Positions 3,780-62,553 of a stretch of 64,000 nucleotides of DNA are shown here, piece after piece. The position numbers were made by a program, and so were the translations under genes. The DNA comes from a virus (Duplodnaviria; Caudoviricetes), in the IMG/VR virus record IMGVR_UViG_3300049320_000001, positions 17,655 through 81,654 of that record. One strand, given 5' to 3'. A model generated the notes under the pieces. The model saw only the letters and a list, made by a program, of their open reading frames with translations. It was not told where the DNA came from and searched no databases. The stretch's first letter is position 1, and every line of letters begins with the position of its first letter.

Positions 3780-4211
3780 ATGGCCATGGTTAGGAACACA
3801 ACCTTGGAGGCACTGAAAGTGGCTGACGCGCAGCGTAAGAGGGCTTCGCTCGACATCCTGACTAGCAAGCGTCAGGTCGAGAAGGAAGTCACGATTGTGG
3901 TCCCAGGCGAAGATGGACCGGAAGAGATGACACTTCTCTTCCGGTCCATCGGGTCTAAGGAGTACGACAGGCTGGTGACCTCCTGTCCCCCGCGTGCTGA
4001 TCAGAAGCGCGAGGGCTCGTCGTACGACATCGACAAGTTCGGGCCTGAGTTGATCTCTCGCGTGTGCGTGGACCCGGTGATGACCGTGGAGGATGCACGG
4101 GCTATCTGGAACTCTGAGCACTGGAACCGTGGTGAGGTCTGGTCGCTGTTCTCCTCGGCGGTCGAGGTCTGCACCAACGGCCTAGAGGTGGGACCTACCA
4201 ACAGCGGCTGA
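3780..4211 (+). CDS. Tail assembly chaperone (G-like)
   Basis: Lies between the tail tube and tape measure genes; followed by an overlapping -1 frame ORF. Confidence 0.75.
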   Translation: MAMVRNTTLEALKVADAQRKRASLDILTSKRQVEKEVTIVVPGEDGPEEMTLLFRSIGSKEYDRLVTSCPPRADQKREGSSYDIDKFGPELISRVCVDPVMTVEDARAIWNSEHWNRGEVWSLFSSAVEVCTNGLEVGPTNSG

Positions 4212-4540: not shown

Positions 4541-7500
4541 CCACTCCCTCGGGCGGCATGGATCGCAACGTCAAGGTCAACCTCACTGCTGACGTCGATC
4601 CCTTCCAGCGCTCCATGGAAGTGGCTACCAAGAGCATCGAGAAGACGACCAACGCCGTCGTGGTGCTGGCCAAGAAGATCGATGAGTTGTGGAAGTCCGC
4701 TGGCAAGAAGTTGGAGTTGTTCGGGGCCGGTGGCCTCGCCTCTCTCGTCGCGGCTACTGAGGCTGCCTCTCGTCTGGACATCGCCTTCCGGGGGGTGAGG
4801 TCCACCGCTGCTGTCACCGGACAGGCGGTCAGGGAACTCAAGGAGGGAGCCGAAGGTCTCGCCCGAGCCCTACCGGCGAGTAACTCTCAGGTAGCCCAGT
4901 TGATGGGTCAGGTCCAAGACCTGGGAGTGCGGGGTACTGAGAACATCGTCAAGTTCACCGAGGTGGCCCTGAGGCTGGCGACAGCCACCAACACGGCCCC
5001 TGGTGAGTTGTTCTCCGGCCTCATGCAGTTGACCCGCACCATGAACGGTTCGACCCAAGACCTGGAGCGGTACTCCTCCTCCCTGGTGGCCCTGTCCAAG
5101 AACAACGGGGTGGCTGCCCAGAGCGTCATCGGCTTCTCCAACGCAATCGAGGCGGTCGCCTCCCGTGCCGGTTACACCCAGGCACAGGTGCTTGGCCTGT
5201 CTACCGCCTTCGCCAGGGCTGGTGCCGACTCTGGTGCCGGTGCGACCGCCTTCATCAAGGTCACCAATGACATCTCGGAGGCCATGCGTACTGGATCCAA
5301 GCAGTTGGACACCTACGCCAACCTGGTGGGGATGAGCCGCCAGCGCTTCCAGGCTCTCGCTCAGGACAACCCGGCTGAGGCCTTCATCAAGGTCATCGAG
5401 GCCATCAAGGACTCCGGTCCCAAGGGGATCGCCATCCTCCAGCAGTTGGGTCTGGACAGCATCCGCACCCAGCGCGCTGTGGCAGCCCTGACCTCGGGGC
5501 AGGCCAACCTCAAGCAGACCCTTGAGGAGTCCTCGGAGGCCTACCGCAAGAACGAGGCCCTGAACAAGGCTTCCAACGCTGCCTACGCCGATCTGTCTAG
5601 TGCGATGACCAAGTTCCGCACTGCCATCGCTCAGGTTGCGGAAGCCATGGGTGGCCCCTTCTTGGGAGTGGCCACCAAGATGGTGGAAGCCCTCACCAAG
5701 GTCATCAACGTCTTCAACACCCTCCCTGGCCCGGTGAAGACCACCATCGCTGTGTTGGCGGCGGTGGGTTCCTCCCTCACCATCGGTGCTGGGGCACTGA
5801 TGATCATCTCCCTGGCCGTGGTGAAGTTCGGCCTGGCTTGGCGTCTGATGTCAGGAGCCATGGCCAGCAACGTCTTCAAGGGTCTGTTCGATGGGCTCCG
5901 GGGTGCGCCGAGGGCTCTGGACAACACCTCCTCGGCCATGACCCGGCTGTACAACGCCACCTATAAGACCTCCAACGCCATGCGTGGGTCACGGATGGCA
6001 GACACCGGGCCTGGGTTGTTCGGCACGGTTATGGGGGAGTCGGGGACCTCCAACCCCATCGGTCTGCCTGGTCGCTACCTCCGCTCCCAGTTGCGTGAGG
6101 TGGGCGACACCCTTCGGCACCCACTGGACTACCGCAAGCGCAACCCTCTGGCCTACTCCGAATACTCCATCGCGGGCATGGGGGTCCGCACCCAGAAGTG
6201 GGCTGAGGGACAGGGCAGGCCCGACGAGCACCCCTTCCTCGCCAAGGCTCGTGATCTCCTCAAGGGCAACCCTGAGGAGAACCTGAGCAAGGCGCAGCAG
6301 GAGAACCTGCGTCTTCGTCAGATCGCTGATGAGAAGGCACGGGCCTACAAAGAGGGCTACGCCAAGATCAGGGAGGCGATGAGGGAGGACCCCGAGGGGT
6401 TCGACCAGCAGGCCGCTACCCACTTCGGCAAGAAGGCCTCCGGTGGGCTCACTGACAGGCACCGTGAGGTCTACGCCCAGAACGTTGCTCAGGCAGCGGC
6501 GAACGAGGCTGCCAAGGCGAAGAAGAAGACCTTCGACCAGGCTGACATCGACAGTGGGCTAGCCCCCTTCAAGGCGATGACCCTGAAGATCAAGACGATG
6601 TCTGGCGAGATGGTCGCTGACGTCGGCACCGGCACTGCCAAGATCATGGACCTGGTGACTGCGGCCTTCGCCCAGTCGGTAGCCAAGATCGTGGAGTTGG
6701 CAGCGCGGGCCAAGATGGCATTGCTGGAGGTCTCCTCTGGCTCTCCTGGAGTAGCGACCCACGGTCTTGCTGGGGCCATCTCTGGCATGAGCGGAGCCGC
6801 CACCAACGCTGGCGAGAAGATCCGTGGCGTCGTCGCTGGGATGAACACCCCCACTGCTGGGCGGGCGGGGATGAACCTCCCCCTCCCCAGCATCCTGGGA
6901 GGTTGGGGGCCACTCGCTCCTCACGATGGCACCGGCAACAAGATCATCACGCTTTCACAAGCCGGACGGGCTGAGGAGTTTGCTGCGGGCTCTACCCGGC
7001 GTACCGGTGCTCTGATGGCCAGCCTGGGGGAGAAGGCTTCTGGCCTGGCGGCTGGGTTCACTGACATCTCAGGCAAGGTCATGGGCGTGGTAGGCCCCCT
7101 TGCCCTCATCGGCACGGCTGCCTTTGCAGCAGGCTCTGCCATCCACGCCTTTGCGGAGAAGGGCAAGCAGGCTGCCCTGAAGATGGCCACCACGGGCGAG
7201 GAGTTCGCCAACGCCCTAGGCCAGAAGTTCAAGTTGCCCACCTACCAGGGTGGGGCCAACCTCGAACCCGGTGACCGCCCGAACCCCTATTCGGATGCGG
7301 AGTACGCGAAGGCGAACGCTCCTGACTTCATCAAGAAGCACAAGGAGGACATCGAGCGGTTCCAGACTCTGGGTGACCACGGTGGTGGGGTCAAGGGACA
7401 GGCGGCTTACGCCCGCATTCTGCTGGACCGGATGGTGGCCTCTAGTGGAGGCAACCTCAACTCGGATGCTCAGCAGGAGTTCCGCCAGTTGCTGATGAGC

Positions 7501-35547: not shown

Positions 35548-35868
35548 TCAGGCGTTCGTCGTGATCTCCGGCTCGACCTGCTCCTTGGCGCGGGCGGCGA
35601 CGGAACGGACCTTCTTGGAGGCCTTGCGAGCGACCCAGCCGATGGTCTCGTCCGGCGCGACCCTGAACGCCAGGACGACGGCTCCGGCAGTGAGGACCGG
35701 CTTCATGGTGTCCTCGAACTGCTTGACCTCCTGGTCGTTCCGTGCCGCCGCCCAGAGGCGACGTGCTCGACCCGTGGTGCTCTTGACCTCCTCGGTGGCC
35801 GTCTCGGCGTCCTGCTTGATGCCGTGGACAGTGGCCTTGCCGGGGACCTTCGGCGTGTCTTCCGCCAT
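35548..35868 (-). CDS. Hypothetical protein
   Basis: AAGGAG RBS before MAEDTPKV. Confidence 0.55.
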   Translation of the reverse strand: MAEDTPKVPGKATVHGIKQDAETATEEVKSTTGRARRLWAAARNDQEVKQFEDTMKPVLTAGAVVLAFRVAPDETIGWVARKASKKVRSVAARAKEQVEPEITTNA

Positions 35869-35918
35869 TGGTGTCTCCTTCATCATCCGCTGGACCTGTT
35901 GTCCTGCGGTATGCCTCA

Positions 35919-35947
35919 AGTGTAAACCAGTAGTAGGAAATAGTCAA
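35919..35947 (-). promoter_or_regulatory. SigA-type promoter TTGACT-17-TACACT
   Basis: Read on the reverse complement just downstream of the ncRNA 3' hairpin. Confidence 0.7.
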
Positions 35948-35949
35948 GG

Positions 35950-37042
35950 CGCAACAAAGCCCCGGCTACCTTTCGTATACCGTCGCCATCACTGGGCTTA
36001 TACGGGGTCAGAAAGACCGGGGCTTTGTGCCTCTATGGGCTCGTATGGTGCAGATAAGAAACCGCAGGCATGTCTTCTTCACCAGACTTCTGAACTTTCG
36101 GAGTCCCCACACCTCTCTCGATCCTCCCGGACCTGGCCTATTCATGGGGTTGGCTCACAGCGTCTGGCCTAGACGGCGGGGTTACCCGCAGGGTTCATGT
36201 TCCTCCTACTTCGCCGTATTCCGGATCGGTGGACTTCCTGGCCTCCTACACCACGGAGGCCCCATAGAAGAGCCCCCACCCGATGACAGATGGGGGCCGG
36301 TGCGCCAGGGGAGACTCGCACTCCCAGAGAACCTTGCCATGTTGAAGTTTGGTGGACTCGTGGCTCGGAGCCAACGAGCGGGGTGACAGTCGGTGCGACG
36401 TTGTGCACTGCACCGTATGGCCGTCTCTGGCGCTGTCAGACGAGGGAGAGCCACGTTGTGTCGCTGCGGCTAACGCTCAGTCGTAGAGCGATCCTTGCCG
36501 CGCTCTCCGTGCTGACCCAGTCATCATACCGCTCCAACCCGCTACAGCGCAACACCCCCACTGCTTGGGGCAAGTAGGGGTGTTGGCTTGGCGCAGGTAC
36601 GGCTCAGGAACAGGATTCCGTCATGGCCGTCCTTCGAGCGGAGGCCCGCCCTCTTCTTAGAGACAGGAGGCTCGTTGACGCCTGAGGCAAGTCTACTGCA
36701 CTTACCTATACATAGCAAAGGACCCCCAGAGGTCTCTTTGACGTGGGGGTCCGCCGTACATCAGGCGCTGGCTTGCTGTGTGCAACCTATCGGATACAGA
36801 GAACCCTACGGTTCCCCTGCCGGTTGAGCAGGGCCAGCCTTACCGGCTGCTCGGCCTGATCTTCCAGAGTGTCTCGTGTTCGCTCTGGGTTGATCGTGTG
36901 CCCTTTGGTCCAGGACTGGGCACTGCATCCTGCAACACTTCGCGGCTGTTGAAGCACCGGCCTCCTGGAAGATGAGGTCTTAGCGTCCGAGTGGAGAGCG
37001 TGTCTCCCTGGCGACCAGGGCCAATCTCCATTCCTCTAACGC
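35950..37042 (-). ncRNA. Candidate large structured ncRNA (~1.1 kb)
   Basis: No credible CDS; at least 13 hairpins; own promoter at the 5' end and a long closing stem (ACAAAGCCCCGG 35954-65 / CCGGGGCTTTGT 36017-28) at the 3' end. Confidence 0.65.
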
Positions 37043-37048
37043 ACCACA

Positions 37049-37077
37049 AACATAACAGATACTGCCTCTATTGTCAA
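37049..37077 (-). promoter_or_regulatory. SigA-type promoter TTGACA-17-TATGTT driving the ncRNA
   Basis: Exact TTGACA, 17-nt spacer, TANNNT -10. Confidence 0.8.
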
Positions 37078-37085
37078 ACGCGAAA

Positions 37086-37107
37086 GACCCCCTATTCCTA
37101 GGGGGTC
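37086..37107. terminator. Terminator hairpin insulating the ncRNA unit from the upstream gene
   Basis: GACCCCCTA-TTCC-TAGGGGGTC, followed by a T run on the minus strand. Confidence 0.75.
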
Positions 37108-37115
37108 CTTAGCGG

Positions 37116-37487
37116 CTAGTCCTGCTCGAACAGGCTGTCCAGCAGGCTGACGGGCTTCTCGGCCTTGGCCGCAGCCATGGCCTTCTTCTCGTCGTAGTGC
37201 CGGTAGCAGTTCTTGTCCTTGCAGTCCTGCACGATGGTCCAGGGTCCGCACTTCTCGACCGGGCGGTTCTCCCAGAGGGTGATCTTGTAGTAGTGGTGCG
37301 CCGCGTTGTGGGCGTTGATGGCCTCGATGACCTGGTTGTAGGACTCCAGGGCCTTCGCCTCCTGGATGGCCCGGATTCGAGCCATCTCTGCGCGGTGCTT
37401 GCGGATCTGCTCTCGCTTCTCCGCTCGCTCCTGCTTGATCTCCTTCCGGATCTCACCGGCCGTCTCGATGACGTCCTTGAGTCCCAT
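37116..37487 (-). CDS. Hypothetical protein (coiled coil plus CxxxxC)
   Basis: AAGGAG RBS before MGLKDV; own promoter and terminator. Confidence 0.7.
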   Translation of the reverse strand: MGLKDVIETAGEIRKEIKQERAEKREQIRKHRAEMARIRAIQEAKALESYNQVIEAINAHNAAHHYYKITLWENRPVEKCGPWTIVQDCKDKNCYRHYDEKKAMAAAKAEKPVSLLDSLFEQD

Positions 37488-37529
37488 GTAGATCAACTCC
37501 TTTAGTAGGGTGGTTTCTGATCTACAACT

Positions 37530-42926: not shown

Positions 42927-43008
42927 GGTCGAGTGGTGGAACTGGTAGACACACAGCACTCAAACTGCTGCGCCGCAAGGCGTGAGGGTTCGACTCCCTC
43001 CTCGACCA
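42927..43008 (+). tRNA. tRNA-Leu (anticodon CAA), CCA not encoded
   Basis: Acceptor GGTCGAG/CTCGACC+A, D-loop GGAACTGGTAGAC, anticodon arm CAGCA-CTCAAAC-TGCTG, long variable arm, GGTTCGACTCC T-arm. Confidence 0.92.
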
Positions 43009-43009
43009 C

Positions 43010-45718
43010 GTGAAGATCATCAGAAGCCCCAGGGGCATCGTGCTACCGAAGAGAACAGAGTCCAACTTCTTCCACGTTCACGCACACTCGCGCTACTCGT
43101 GGAACGACGCCTTGCCTGAGGTCAAGGACATGGTCTCAACCGTGTCTGCGATGGGGCACAAGGCCCTCGCACTGACAGACCACGGCAACATGGCTGGGTC
43201 GGTGCAGTTGTACAAGGAGTGCATGAAGGCTGGACTCATGCCCTTCCCTGGCACAGAGGCCTACTTCGTCAAGGACCGCCAGGACAAGACTGCGAAGCGC
43301 TTCCATCTAGGCCTCCTGGCCGTCAACGCCGATGGTTACCGTGCGCTGGCCAGGTTGTCCAGCAGATCGCACACCAGGGAGAACTTCCATCACAAGCCGT
43401 TGATCGACTGGACGGACCTTGCTGAATGGAAGGAGAACGGCTGGACGACCGGCCTTGCTCTGACGTCTGGCTGCTACTTCGGCCTGACGATCCAGACTCT
43501 CATCAGCGATGGTCCAGAGGCGGCGAAGAGCGTCCTCCAGCGGTTTGCCTGGTTGGTTCCCAACACCTTCGTGGAGTTGCAGAACCACAAGATCGATCAG
43601 AAGCCGGTCAGTGAAGACGACATCGCAGCCGCACTTGTCCACCTGGCAGACGAACTCGGCCTGCCCGTCGTCATCGCCCAGGACGCCCACTACTGCGAAG
43701 CCTCGGACAAGCCGGTGCACGAAACCCTGAAGCGCGTAGTCGCCTTCGGACCTGACACGGATGACGCGGTGTTCCCAGGTGATGGATTCCACCTGGCGGA
43801 AGCCCAGTGGGTCGCTGCCCACCACCAGGATGGGCACTGGGCTAAAGCGGAAGAGGGTTGGGGACATCTGCTGGACCTTCACGCACTGTCCATCCCCGAG
43901 TTGGACAGGTACACGTACAACATCCCGAAGGTAGCGGAGGACCCGGATGCTGTCCTGGAAGGGCGTTGTCGCCAGGCGCTCAACGAGCGAACACTTCCGA
44001 CGCCTTACGCAGATCGTCTACATAGCGAACTGTCCATCGTGCGCGACACGGGGATGGCGGGATACCTACTTCTGGTCGCTGAAGTCACGGACTGGTGTGC
44101 AGCACATGGCGTGTTCACACAGGCTCGTGGAAGCGCTAGCGGATCAGTCATCTGCTGGCTTCTCGGAATCACCCAATGTGACCCTATTCGCTACAACCTA
44201 CGGTTTGAACGGTTCATCTCCCGCGACCGCACAAAGCCTCCTGACATTGATCTGGATGTCGAGGATTCACGACGACAGGACCTCATTGACTGGCTGAAGA
44301 CCAGGTTCTCTGTGGTGCAGATCGGTACTTTCCTCACCTACGGCATCAATGACGACGAGAAGACCCCTGAGGATGACAAGGGCAAGGGCTCGCTCATCGT
44401 GGCCTTCAAGAAGGTGGCCAAGAAGAACGGGGCCTCGAAGGAGGAGTTGGACGCCATCGAGACCATCAGGGACATCCCTGATGAGTGGCGTGATCGCCTC
44501 ATGGCCCTCGCGGACCGAGGAGTGTGCAAGGCAGTAGGCACTCACGCTGGTGGCCTCATCGTCACCACCACGGACGACGAGATGGACGACCTGGTCCCCA
44601 AGATGCTCATCGTCACCAAGAACGAGGCTGGCTACCGCATTGTGAGCCAGTACACGATGGACGATGTGGAGGCGTTGGGCCTTGTCAAACTGGACGTACT
44701 TGGACTTCGTACCTTGTCCCTTCTGCGGCGCTGTACTGAACTTCTGGGAAGAGACGTCCGAGACGGGCTCGACTGGATTCCACTCGATGACACCCGGACA
44801 TTCACTACGATCCGGAACGGTGCCACGGCTGGAGTGTTCCAACTGGAGGGTGGTACAGCCCAGCGTGGTTGCCGTGAGGTGAAGGTGAGGTCCCTCAAGG
44901 ACATCATCGTCATCCAGGCTCTCTACCGTCCCGCTGTGATGAAGAGCGGCGGCAAGGACGCCTACATCGCTCGGCGTGAAGGCCGCGAGAAGGCCCCTGA
45001 GTACCACCCCTTGATCATGCGTAGCGTCAAGGAGACCTTCGGGGTGATCATCTTCCAGGAGCAGGTCATCTCGATCCTCAGGGACCTGGGCATGGACCCC
45101 GACGAACTCACTGACTTCCTCAAGGCAATCAAGGCCTCCCAGAAGGCAGACATGAAGAAGGCTGCCGTCACAATGGAGGCAGCCAGGGAGCGAGTCTGGG
45201 AGTTGTGCGAGAAGCATGGCATCGGGGCTGAGGACTACGCCCTCGTCTGGAAGGCCATCGAGGGCTTCGCGGAGTACGGCTTCAACCGCGCTCACGCCAC
45301 TGCGTACGGCATCACCGCCTACCGCTGTGCCTACCTCAAGACCCACTACCCGTTGGAGTTCGCCACTGCGTTGCTCCAGACGGCTGAGGGCACCAAGAAG
45401 GAGGCCATGTACATCTCAGCGGTGCGGCAGATGGGCATCTCCATCCGCAGGCCGCACGTCAACATCAGCGGCAAGTCCTACTCCATCGACCGCAAGGCAC
45501 GGAGCGTGAGGAAGGGCCTGGTGTCCATCCTGGGGATCGGTGAGCGCACCTCTGAGGAGTTGGAGGAGCACGCTCCCTACACCTCTGTTCAGGACATCAT
45601 CGACCGCTGCTCTGCCACCAGGGTGAACGGTGGGAAGAAATGGGCCAAGGACAAGTCCCTCAACGGCCACCTGGCCAAGTTGAAGGACATCGGAGCACTG
45701 GAGGGCCTTGATGGATGA
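43010..45718 (+). CDS. dnaE: DNA polymerase III alpha subunit (DnaE-like)
   Basis: PHP motifs HVHAHSRYS, ALTDHGN, QDAHY; RGSASGS; PDIDLD; THAGG; KLDVLGL; FAEYGFNRAHA. Confidence 0.95.
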   Translation: MKIIRSPRGIVLPKRTESNFFHVHAHSRYSWNDALPEVKDMVSTVSAMGHKALALTDHGNMAGSVQLYKECMKAGLMPFPGTEAYFVKDRQDKTAKRFHLGLLAVNADGYRALARLSSRSHTRENFHHKPLIDWTDLAEWKENGWTTGLALTSGCYFGLTIQTLISDGPEAAKSVLQRFAWLVPNTFVELQNHKIDQKPVSEDDIAAALVHLADELGLPVVIAQDAHYCEASDKPVHETLKRVVAFGPDTDDAVFPGDGFHLAEAQWVAAHHQDGHWAKAEEGWGHLLDLHALSIPELDRYTYNIPKVAEDPDAVLEGRCRQALNERTLPTPYADRLHSELSIVRDTGMAGYLLLVAEVTDWCAAHGVFTQARGSASGSVICWLLGITQCDPIRYNLRFERFISRDRTKPPDIDLDVEDSRRQDLIDWLKTRFSVVQIGTFLTYGINDDEKTPEDDKGKGSLIVAFKKVAKKNGASKEELDAIETIRDIPDEWRDRLMALADRGVCKAVGTHAGGLIVTTTDDEMDDLVPKMLIVTKNEAGYRIVSQYTMDDVEALGLVKLDVLGLRTLSLLRRCTELLGRDVRDGLDWIPLDDTRTFTTIRNGATAGVFQLEGGTAQRGCREVKVRSLKDIIVIQALYRPAVMKSGGKDAYIARREGREKAPEYHPLIMRSVKETFGVIIFQEQVISILRDLGMDPDELTDFLKAIKASQKADMKKAAVTMEAARERVWELCEKHGIGAEDYALVWKAIEGFAEYGFNRAHATAYGITAYRCAYLKTHYPLEFATALLQTAEGTKKEAMYISAVRQMGISIRRPHVNISGKSYSIDRKARSVRKGLVSILGIGERTSEELEEHAPYTSVQDIIDRCSATRVNGGKKWAKDKSLNGHLAKLKDIGALEGLDG

Positions 45719-62524: not shown

Positions 62525-62553
62525 ACAATAACACGCTGTGCATCAAATGTCAA
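62525..62553 (-). promoter_or_regulatory. SigA-type promoter TTGACA-17-TATTGT
   Basis: Read on the reverse complement. Confidence 0.75.

Follow-up and report, generated by a model that had tools for sequence, protein, structure and literature searches.

What a phage encodes in more than a kilobase of DNA that specifies no recognizable protein is the question raised by positions 35950 to 37077 of the sequence analyzed here. That sequence, referred to below as the window, is a 64-kb stretch with a G+C content of ∼60% that forms the right-hand part of a complete 81.6-kb IMG/VR virus record (IMGVR_UViG_3300049320_000001). The locus is oriented on the minus strand, where it heads a leftward-transcribed block of small genes ∼750 nt from the rightward-transcribed dnaB, and we favor, with moderate confidence, reading it as a protein-free locus for two consecutive structured non-coding RNAs (units A and B) of a family that is not in Rfam. 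The DnaB, primase, and DnaE proteins of the record have distant relatives in Gordonia, Brevibacterium, and Streptomyces phages (∼30% identity for DnaB); the primase is assigned by Pfam in the window.

The locus does not code for protein. A six-frame codon log-likelihood scan, trained on the long genes of the phage itself, is negative in all frames from ∼35920 to 37110, and the genes flanking the gap score +0.4 to +0.8 per codon. The largest stretch of the window left uncovered by a crude gene caller is 35887-37115 (1,229 nt), and the next-largest apparent gaps overlap long open reading frames (ORFs), such as that of the primase. A preliminary description of this DNA, made from the letters and their ORFs, had reported a lone kilobase-scale gap in which no ORF has phage-like codon usage, and both points hold, since 35887-37115 is the largest stretch of the window with no coding signal in any frame. 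Peptide similarities between this gap and those of related phages extend over 8 to 25 residues and are distributed equally over all six frames; because the similarities are independent of frame, nothing is translated in a conserved way, and no conserved small ORF was found among the relatives compared. The region has no blastn match among 50,697 phage records.

Related phages were gathered as DnaB homologues from a large protein index followed by contig look-ups (DnaB 50 to 81% identical), DnaB scans of viral and metagenome contigs having yielded one relative only; the set that shares modules with the window comprises seven distinct relative sequences. A protein-free gap is found at the equivalent place beside dnaB in every related contig with enough flanking sequence, and it varies from ∼1.1 kb in L007 and L011, through ∼1.2 kb in L002 and ∼1.5 kb in L020, to ∼1.9 kb in L018. 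The L014 gap is ∼1.4 kb after a 179-residue "gene" is recognized as RNA. This called gene (L014:2809-3348, minus strand) is largely a miscall over the unit B RNA, and the terminal hairpin, the following promoter, and the true start of an ∼80-codon gene are all inside it. In the RNA sense, the relatives share one order. A promoter (P1) of the window type opens the gap and is followed by an RNA stretch of a few hundred nucleotides, a strong GC hairpin with a U-rich tail, and a second -35/-10 pair; then come 0.5 to 1.2 kb of RNA, a long terminal hairpin, and, for the next gene, a promoter and a conserved leader. The bulk of the sequence between the conserved modules cannot be aligned even at 80% DnaB identity: L007 and L011 (DnaB 80%) have only short local matches to the window (E values of 8e-6 and 8e-3, respectively, with 4e-4 for L020), and neither MAFFT alignments of the whole region and of whole units nor RNAalifold on unit A gave any alignment outside the modules. 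The parts of the locus in the window, in the order in which they would be transcribed, are as follows.

37116-37496, minus strand: upstream flanking gene, an orphan with no Pfam or PHROG family
37079-37114, minus strand: hairpin terminator T0, with 16-nt arms (37079-37094 and 37099-37114) that are 88% complementary
37049-37077, minus strand: promoter P1, TTGACA-17-TATGTT with a TG extension, matching 10 of 12 consensus positions, with a predicted start near 37042
36715-37042, minus strand: putative unit A RNA, ∼0.33 kb, with no coding signal and with P1 and T1 borders as in all relatives
36992-37030, minus strand: module M1, an outer helix, an inner 6-bp hairpin with a 3-nt loop, and a purine-rich 3' bulge (AGACAC)
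36815-36857, minus strand: conserved block of unit A, surrounding a GGTAAG-containing hairpin
36720-36751, minus strand: hairpin T1, the predicted unit A terminator, an 8-bp GC stem followed by TTTGCT (-17.3 kcal/mol), flagged as terminator-like by the signal scan
36690-36719, minus strand: predicted internal promoter P2, with a -35 element at ∼36713-36719, a -10 element TAGACT at 36690-36695, and a start near 36683
35954-36683, minus strand: putative unit B RNA, ∼0.73 kb, with no coding signal and with a homologue within an RNA-derived chimeric contig
36300-36433, minus strand: tRNA-like domain (TLD), 134 nt, a 7-bp acceptor-like stem, ∼100 nt of inserted hairpins, and a T arm, then A-C
36272-36297, minus strand: hairpin after the TLD, 11 bp with a U-rich run next to it (-21.1 kcal/mol, z = -4.5)
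35954-36028, minus strand: terminal element M5, a long outer stem (35954-35965 with 36017-36028), an inner stem with a 3' bulge, and an apical hairpin
35919-35947, minus strand: promoter P3 of the next gene (35548-35886), TTGACT-17-TACACT
35548-35886, minus strand: downstream flanking gene behind P3, an orphan with no Pfam or PHROG family

The outer borders of the locus are as the preliminary description had drawn them. Its near-consensus promoter at 37077-37049 is P1, which additionally has the TG extension, and its upstream insulating terminator is present in the inverted-repeat arms of T0, which is predicted to end the upstream gene as well as to insulate P1. At the other end, its closing stem is the outer stem of M5, which pairs at 12 of 12 positions and is directly followed by P3 at 35947-35919. 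Perfect matches to the TG-extended P1 pattern occur only twice in the 64 kb, at P1 itself and at 37558-37530. The latter is an extended -10 promoter like P1 (37530-37558, minus strand), and it precedes the upstream orphan gene; another of this type, with two mismatches, is at 62525-62553 (minus strand).

Between these borders, the single giant RNA of ∼1.1 kb that had been proposed probably gives way to two shorter ones. In the middle of the gap, the window and all seven relatives examined have a GC hairpin with a U-rich tail and, after it, -35 and -10 elements. Given this conservation, the simplest reading is of two cassettes, unit A (37042 to ∼36715) and unit B (∼36683 to 35954), whose predicted lengths are ∼0.33 and ∼0.73 kb. 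The P2 of the window is weak, matching ∼8 of 12 consensus positions and falling under the promoter-scan threshold, and its equivalents are stronger in relatives, being near consensus in L018 (TTGACC-17-TAGAAT) and L014. The two-cassette layout matches the style of the early arm, in which each small gene has its own promoter and terminator. The transcription boundaries in the window phage are predictions from these signals, and strong expression of the locus, also a prediction, is plausible.

Relatives carry a similar small gene behind P3, which in them has an identical -10 element and then a TTGAGGCA-type start region. The equivalents in L002, L014, L018, and L020 of the leader between P3 and this gene (35890-35918, minus strand) contain a small conserved hairpin with a GAAA-type loop, which might be a regulatory or stabilizing element. 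The products of the two genes flanking the gap, 37116-37496 and 35548-35886, have no homologues except themselves among 5.8 billion proteins, and the RNA modules are better conserved than the neighboring early proteins.

A homologue of unit B occurs in an unexpected setting. Contig L068 (IMGVR_UViG_3300020069_000766; 2,345 nt) codes for a toti-like RNA-dependent RNA polymerase (RdRp; Pfam RdRP_4, E = 2.5e-104), and over its last 565 nt (1781-2345) it runs collinearly with unit B of L002 and L020. L207, a sister contig, matches L068 at 99.9% identity up to position 1780 and has a different sequence beyond it; L002, L068, and L207 all stem from a rhizosphere sample series. Because of the divergence after position 1780, L068 is regarded as a chimeric assembly, presumably from an RNA-derived library and amounting to a misassembly in the public viral catalogue; its chimeric nature rules out that the phage part is a genuine 3' region of the RNA virus. 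The phage part begins ∼13 nt past the equivalent of the P2 start and breaks off inside M5, an extent that fits a discrete P2-to-M5 transcript. To judge the type of library by its RdRp, this suggests that the unit-B-type molecule of a relative exists as RNA in nature.

Structure beyond that expected by chance appears to be moderate and strand specific, with minus-strand fold z-scores of -2.46 for unit A and -3.29 for unit B, compared with -1.08 for the plus strand of unit B; the G-U pairs of the conserved helices are compatible with the minus strand only. All twelve hairpins in the preliminary description fold as it listed them, but a conserved fold over the whole length of this nearly continuous series is not supported, as conservation is limited to modules. 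In a comparison of homologues, compensatory base changes are present in three modules (M1, the TLD, and M5), with about eight distinct sequences behind the covariation, and the sequence between the modules is unalignable.

All seven distinct sequences carry M1 directly downstream of P1 and of the start of unit A, and L007 and L011 have a second copy after P2. Its inner hairpin, with a loop of 3 or 4 nt across the family, is paired in 93.8% of the cells of a nine-row alignment and has changed on both sides at four of its six pairs; none of 500 shuffles was as good, and all slid controls were far lower. The outer helix also has both-side changes between relatives, as judged by eye. Further into unit A, the block at 36815-36857 has a 43-nt match to L020 at 81% identity (E = 4e-4 within the gap set) and a 24-nt match to L091 at 83% identity. 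M5 is found with the same three-tier architecture just before P3 in seven relatives, with compensatory changes at 12 of 17 consensus pairs and an apical 17-nt sequence that is near-invariant among the relatives and partly retained in the window; it is the predicted terminator and 3' end of unit B. The hairpin at 36272-36297 is a possible additional stop or stabilizer, and it has no conserved counterpart as such in the relatives. Pattern scans for a 16-nt apical motif and a 14-nt motif gave mostly chance matches. The lack of coding signal, the kept position, and the helices with compensatory changes uphold the earlier proposal of a non-coding structured RNA, and, judged by these sequence comparisons, the gap is a locus for structured non-coding RNA whose family Rfam does not contain.

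Of the other explanations, the one that survives best is that a single ∼1.1-kb RNA is made from P1 by read-through of T1, or that the region is a longer leader extending into the downstream genes; we consider this unlikely. P1 is far stronger than P2 in the window and the U tail of T1 is short, but the mid-gap hairpin, U-rich tail, and promoter recur in all seven relatives, several of them with near-consensus hexamers. M1 might, on this alternative, be a put- or nut-like antitermination signal, and its position behind the start of unit A, with the second copy behind P2 in L007 and L011, suits a promoter-proximal antitermination RNA; however, the locus has no likeness to the known antitermination RNAs in Rfam, and the RNA-derived fragment in L068 starts near the P2 equivalent rather than near P1.

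Unit B, as delimited by P2 and M5, contains the TLD. In the relatives this domain is 125 to 140 nt long, its first and last seven bases pair in the manner of an acceptor stem, and its 3' part consists of a T arm (5-bp stem and 7-nt loop), followed directly by the acceptor 3' strand and then A-C. The window copy, which was located through the local match to L007, has the acceptor strands GCGCCAG/CTGGCGC and the T stem GGGAG/CTCCC. A covariance model of the TLD (R1), built from the seven relatives with the window left out, has its best match over both strands of the 64-kb window at 36300-36433, where it aligns at full length (20.9 bits, E ∼0.007) with all 12 pairs standard. Because MAFFT misregistered the 5' end of the domain, its pairs were counted by position and with the covariance model; counted by position in eight sequences, compensatory changes are seen at six of seven acceptor and four of five T-stem positions. 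The acceptor 5' strands form a mean of 6.4 of 7 pairs with their own 3' strands versus 3.9 of 7 with those of other members, and the pairing table understates the pairing because the register of the L014 row was off by one base. The acceptor stem and T arm are also formed in the minimum-energy fold of the whole 734-nt unit B. No TLD was detected in L086, L088, and L091, which are more distant relatives.

Neither ARAGORN nor Rfam finds a tRNA in the gap, and the only call in the window is a tRNA-Leu at 42927-43009. The TLD was rejected as a tRNA in that it has no D or anticodon arm, with ∼100 nt of unrelated hairpins in their place, and is called by neither program. It was likewise rejected as a tmRNA, for which there is no ARAGORN or Rfam call and the window acceptor has G3-C70 rather than G3:U70; the third acceptor pair is Watson-Crick in every row read in register, and known one-piece tmRNAs are far longer than 134 nt. 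In the T loop of tRNAs, U at position 1 and A at position 5 make the key cross-loop pair, and the second and third positions contact the D loop. The former two bases are retained in seven of eight TLD members, and the second and third positions vary among them.

Other tRNA-related elements are present in the gaps of relatives and elsewhere. In L018, ARAGORN calls a tRNA-Met inside the gap (3989-4065, minus strand), which scores 28.8 bits with the Rfam tRNA model against a threshold of 29, and in L002 it calls a 93-nt "tRNA-Trp" (4815-4907, minus strand) that resembles a further tRNA-like domain and has a perfect 7-bp acceptor stem. An 18-nt T-arm motif is found at 41 IMG/VR loci (L045 to L085) in 36 distinct phage contexts, with no ARAGORN tRNA at the 13 loci checked and no Rfam match at the nine scanned; a perfect 7-bp acceptor partner lies upstream of the motif in 14 of the 36 contexts, compared with a chance expectation of ∼7%. 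Many of these sites immediately precede a ribosome-binding site and start codon, and in L049 and L067 the start codon of DNA polymerase III alpha is inside the acceptor strand. These T-arm loci may represent tRNA-like elements of a widespread class, acting in processing or as leaders. The tRNA-Leu(CAA) of the window (42927-43009, plus strand) has no encoded CCA and is directly followed by the GTG start of dnaE at 43010, an abutment that echoes those in L049 and L067; in L011, too, a tRNA-Leu(CAA) (5914-5990) is located downstream of the replication genes.

A different recurrent element is a hairpin with an invariant 15-nt loop, GGGCCTGGCTAAACA, whose 4-bp stem exists in four different versions, all fully paired. 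The window lacks this hairpin. It is located in unit B of several relatives (it is present in L002, L020, L088, and L068), and it also occurs in non-coding sequence of a phage of ∼87 kb that is otherwise unrelated (L092:640-670 and L093:2122-2152).

The genomic setting raises a second alternative, that of an RNA-primed or cis-acting replication origin like ColE1 RNA II or the RNA origins of cluster A prophages. The locus, at ∼750 nt from dnaB, borders the dnaB-primase-dnaE module, and RNA-based origins have an actinobacteriophage precedent in the extrachromosomal cluster A prophages of mycobacteria (PMC7157519). However, the region has neither iterons nor an AT-rich unwinding element; its G+C fraction stays at 0.59 to 0.63, and its repeats are short and at chance level, which also discounts a CRISPR-like array. 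A primer RNA would not need the conserved helices and the TLD, and similar modules are found away from replication genes in other phages, so an origin is an improbable explanation.

Slightly less probable again is that the locus is a decaying tRNA island in which the tRNA-like pieces are functionless pseudogenes. This would account for the near-threshold tRNA-Met in the L018 gap, the 93-nt tRNA-like element in L002, and the T-arm-like hairpins scattered over the gaps of relatives, but the acceptor and T stems keep pairing through both-side changes in eight lineages and the TLD keeps a size of 125 to 140 nt, both of which would be unexpected in pseudogenes. Moreover, the non-tRNA modules M1 and M5 are conserved too, and dedicated promoters and terminators are retained. 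Small protein genes overlooked by the ORF and codon statistics are very improbable, for the ORFs of 25 to 82 codons in the region, and a plausible ∼58-codon ORF with a ribosome-binding site in the gap of the distant relative L088, are set against negative codon usage in all frames and the lack of any conserved ORF, the short six-frame similarities being such as fit conserved nucleotides.

How two RNAs of this kind relate to known families was examined with Rfam, using cmscan on the whole window at the gathering threshold and on 35700-37300 at E values up to 10, and on six related loci at E values up to 1, with 15 related or motif-bearing loci covered in all. No family matches in the gap region at E values up to 10, and the 15 loci gave only true tRNAs and sub-threshold noise, such as a Twister-sister match in L007 (26.2 bits, E = 0.17) that overlaps the T arm and was rejected. 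The suggested GOLLD-like RNA is not borne out, there being no match to GOLLD (RF01998) or ROOL (RF03087) in the gap or, at the E values just given, in the six related loci, and none to either model elsewhere in the window. Of the other suggestion, a new giant RNA class, the novelty stands, in that the family is absent from Rfam, and the giant single RNA is not supported. The YrlA model (RF02553) likewise matches neither the window nor the six related loci, and no Ro60/TROVE gene was found in the complete 81.6-kb record by a search that gave matches in control genomes.

The locus nonetheless resembles some RNAs with tRNA-shaped parts. The mascRNA of MALAT1 and the species 1 and 2 RNAs of the phage T4 tRNA cluster are tRNA-shaped elements in longer transcripts, which let RNase P and tRNA 3'-end enzymes excise stable RNAs. 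These come from unrelated organisms and are unrelated in sequence, and comparable processing of the TLD is a proposal only. GOLLD and ROOL often lie near tRNA islands, and tRNAs are sometimes inside GOLLD (PMC12286853). Like them, the locus is long, protein-free, phage-encoded, and tied to tRNAs, here through the TLD inside unit B; unlike them, it probably consists of two units (0.33 and 0.73 kb) with short modules and no ornate conserved core. As for the location of GOLLD in phages beside or around tRNAs, the phage location agrees, the window gap contains no tRNA but only the TLD, and the gap of L018 has a tRNA-Met; the element embedded here is an anticodon-less mimic whereas those of GOLLD are tRNAs.

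YrlA is a tRNA-like Y RNA of bacteria and some phages, and that of Mycobacterium smegmatis has a 7-bp acceptor stem, is cleaved by RNase P, and receives CCA (PMC4201824). The TLD resembles it as part of a non-coding RNA with an acceptor-like stem and T arm, and YrlA-like processing here would be by analogy. In YrlA, however, a D arm is kept and the molecule opens into a Ro-binding stem, whereas here the two ends of the domain close the acceptor stem and the D and anticodon arms are replaced; the window phage also has no Ro60 partner, besides matching no YrlA model. Cluster A mycobacteriophages L5, D29, and StarStuff make an abundant early non-coding RNA of ∼500 nt from Pleft (PMC5712189), which is similar in being a non-coding stretch of several hundred bases that heads a leftward early region of an actinobacteriophage, behind the strongest early promoter. 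It differs in that no phage in the blastn set has sequence similarity to the region, a tRNA-like domain is not reported for it, and its expression was measured, whereas expression of the present locus is predicted.

The window and its closer relatives have in common a gap between the leftward early genes and dnaB; P1, an internal terminator with P2, and a terminal hairpin before P3; and a TLD of 125 to 140 nt whose 7-bp acceptor stem and T arm covary and are followed by A-C. On this basis the locus is filed as a new family of a known kind, that of structured non-coding phage RNAs that include tRNA-like parts.

RNase P, tRNA 3'-end processing, and CCA addition require of a substrate no more than a 7-bp acceptor stem stacked on a T arm. 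From this and the YrlA precedent comes the proposal that unit B is cut on both sides of the TLD, and what we infer for the processing and any function of the two RNAs is as follows. P1 would drive unit A, with M1 at its start and T1 at its end, and the weaker P2 would drive unit B, with the TLD inside and M5 at its end, both RNAs being made early and abundantly. Host RNase P would cut the 5' side of the TLD and a tRNA 3'-end enzyme would cut after the discriminator-like A, releasing a stable RNA of ∼135 nt with the shape of a tRNA, together with a structured fragment from either side of it. The products would act in trans on host or phage factors that recognize the tRNA shape, and M1 and M5 may protect or mark the ends of the primary RNAs. 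Antisense targets of the RNAs are not evident elsewhere in the 81.6-kb genome, where the longest exact matches are 14 to 15 nt and at chance level.

More tentatively, and in our view short of an even chance, the locus could represent a broad, uncatalogued class of phage stable RNAs, in which exchangeable modules surround an anticodon-less tRNA mimic that is excised by the host and then serves as a decoy or bait for targets such as tRNA-targeting defense nucleases, CCA-adding or modification enzymes, or the ribosome. Such breadth is hinted at because the T-arm and acceptor design occurs on dozens of unrelated phage contigs and because the GGGCCTGGCTAAACA-loop hairpin is common to other phages.

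Several points weigh against two consecutive structured RNAs with a processed tRNA-like domain. The weak P2 and the modest U tail of T1 mean that read-through from P1 could give one long RNA. The distinct sequences, about eight in number, are mutually related, so that the shuffle tests overstate significance, and with units that are mostly unalignable and moderate fold z-scores, a large part of the sequence may be spacer and not ornate structure. The R1 E value is rough owing to a short calibration, and the T loop of the window copy is non-canonical at position 2, making recognition by tRNA enzymes uncertain. Finally, the evidence from L068 concerns a relative rather than the window phage, and the RNA nature of that sample is deduced from its RdRp content.

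Large phage RNAs of the GOLLD and ROOL type are rare and recurrently adjoin tRNAs, and the locus adds a further family, from uncultivated, actinobacteriophage-like phages, in which the link to tRNA is built into the RNA itself as an anticodon-less mimic. Recognizing the locus would correct gene calls, such as that of the 179-residue "gene" in one relative. Its clearly delimited parts (promoters, terminators, and a 134-nt domain) are directly makeable and testable, and if the mimic is indeed processed by tRNA enzymes, it would provide a simple experimental handle on the role of such phage RNAs.

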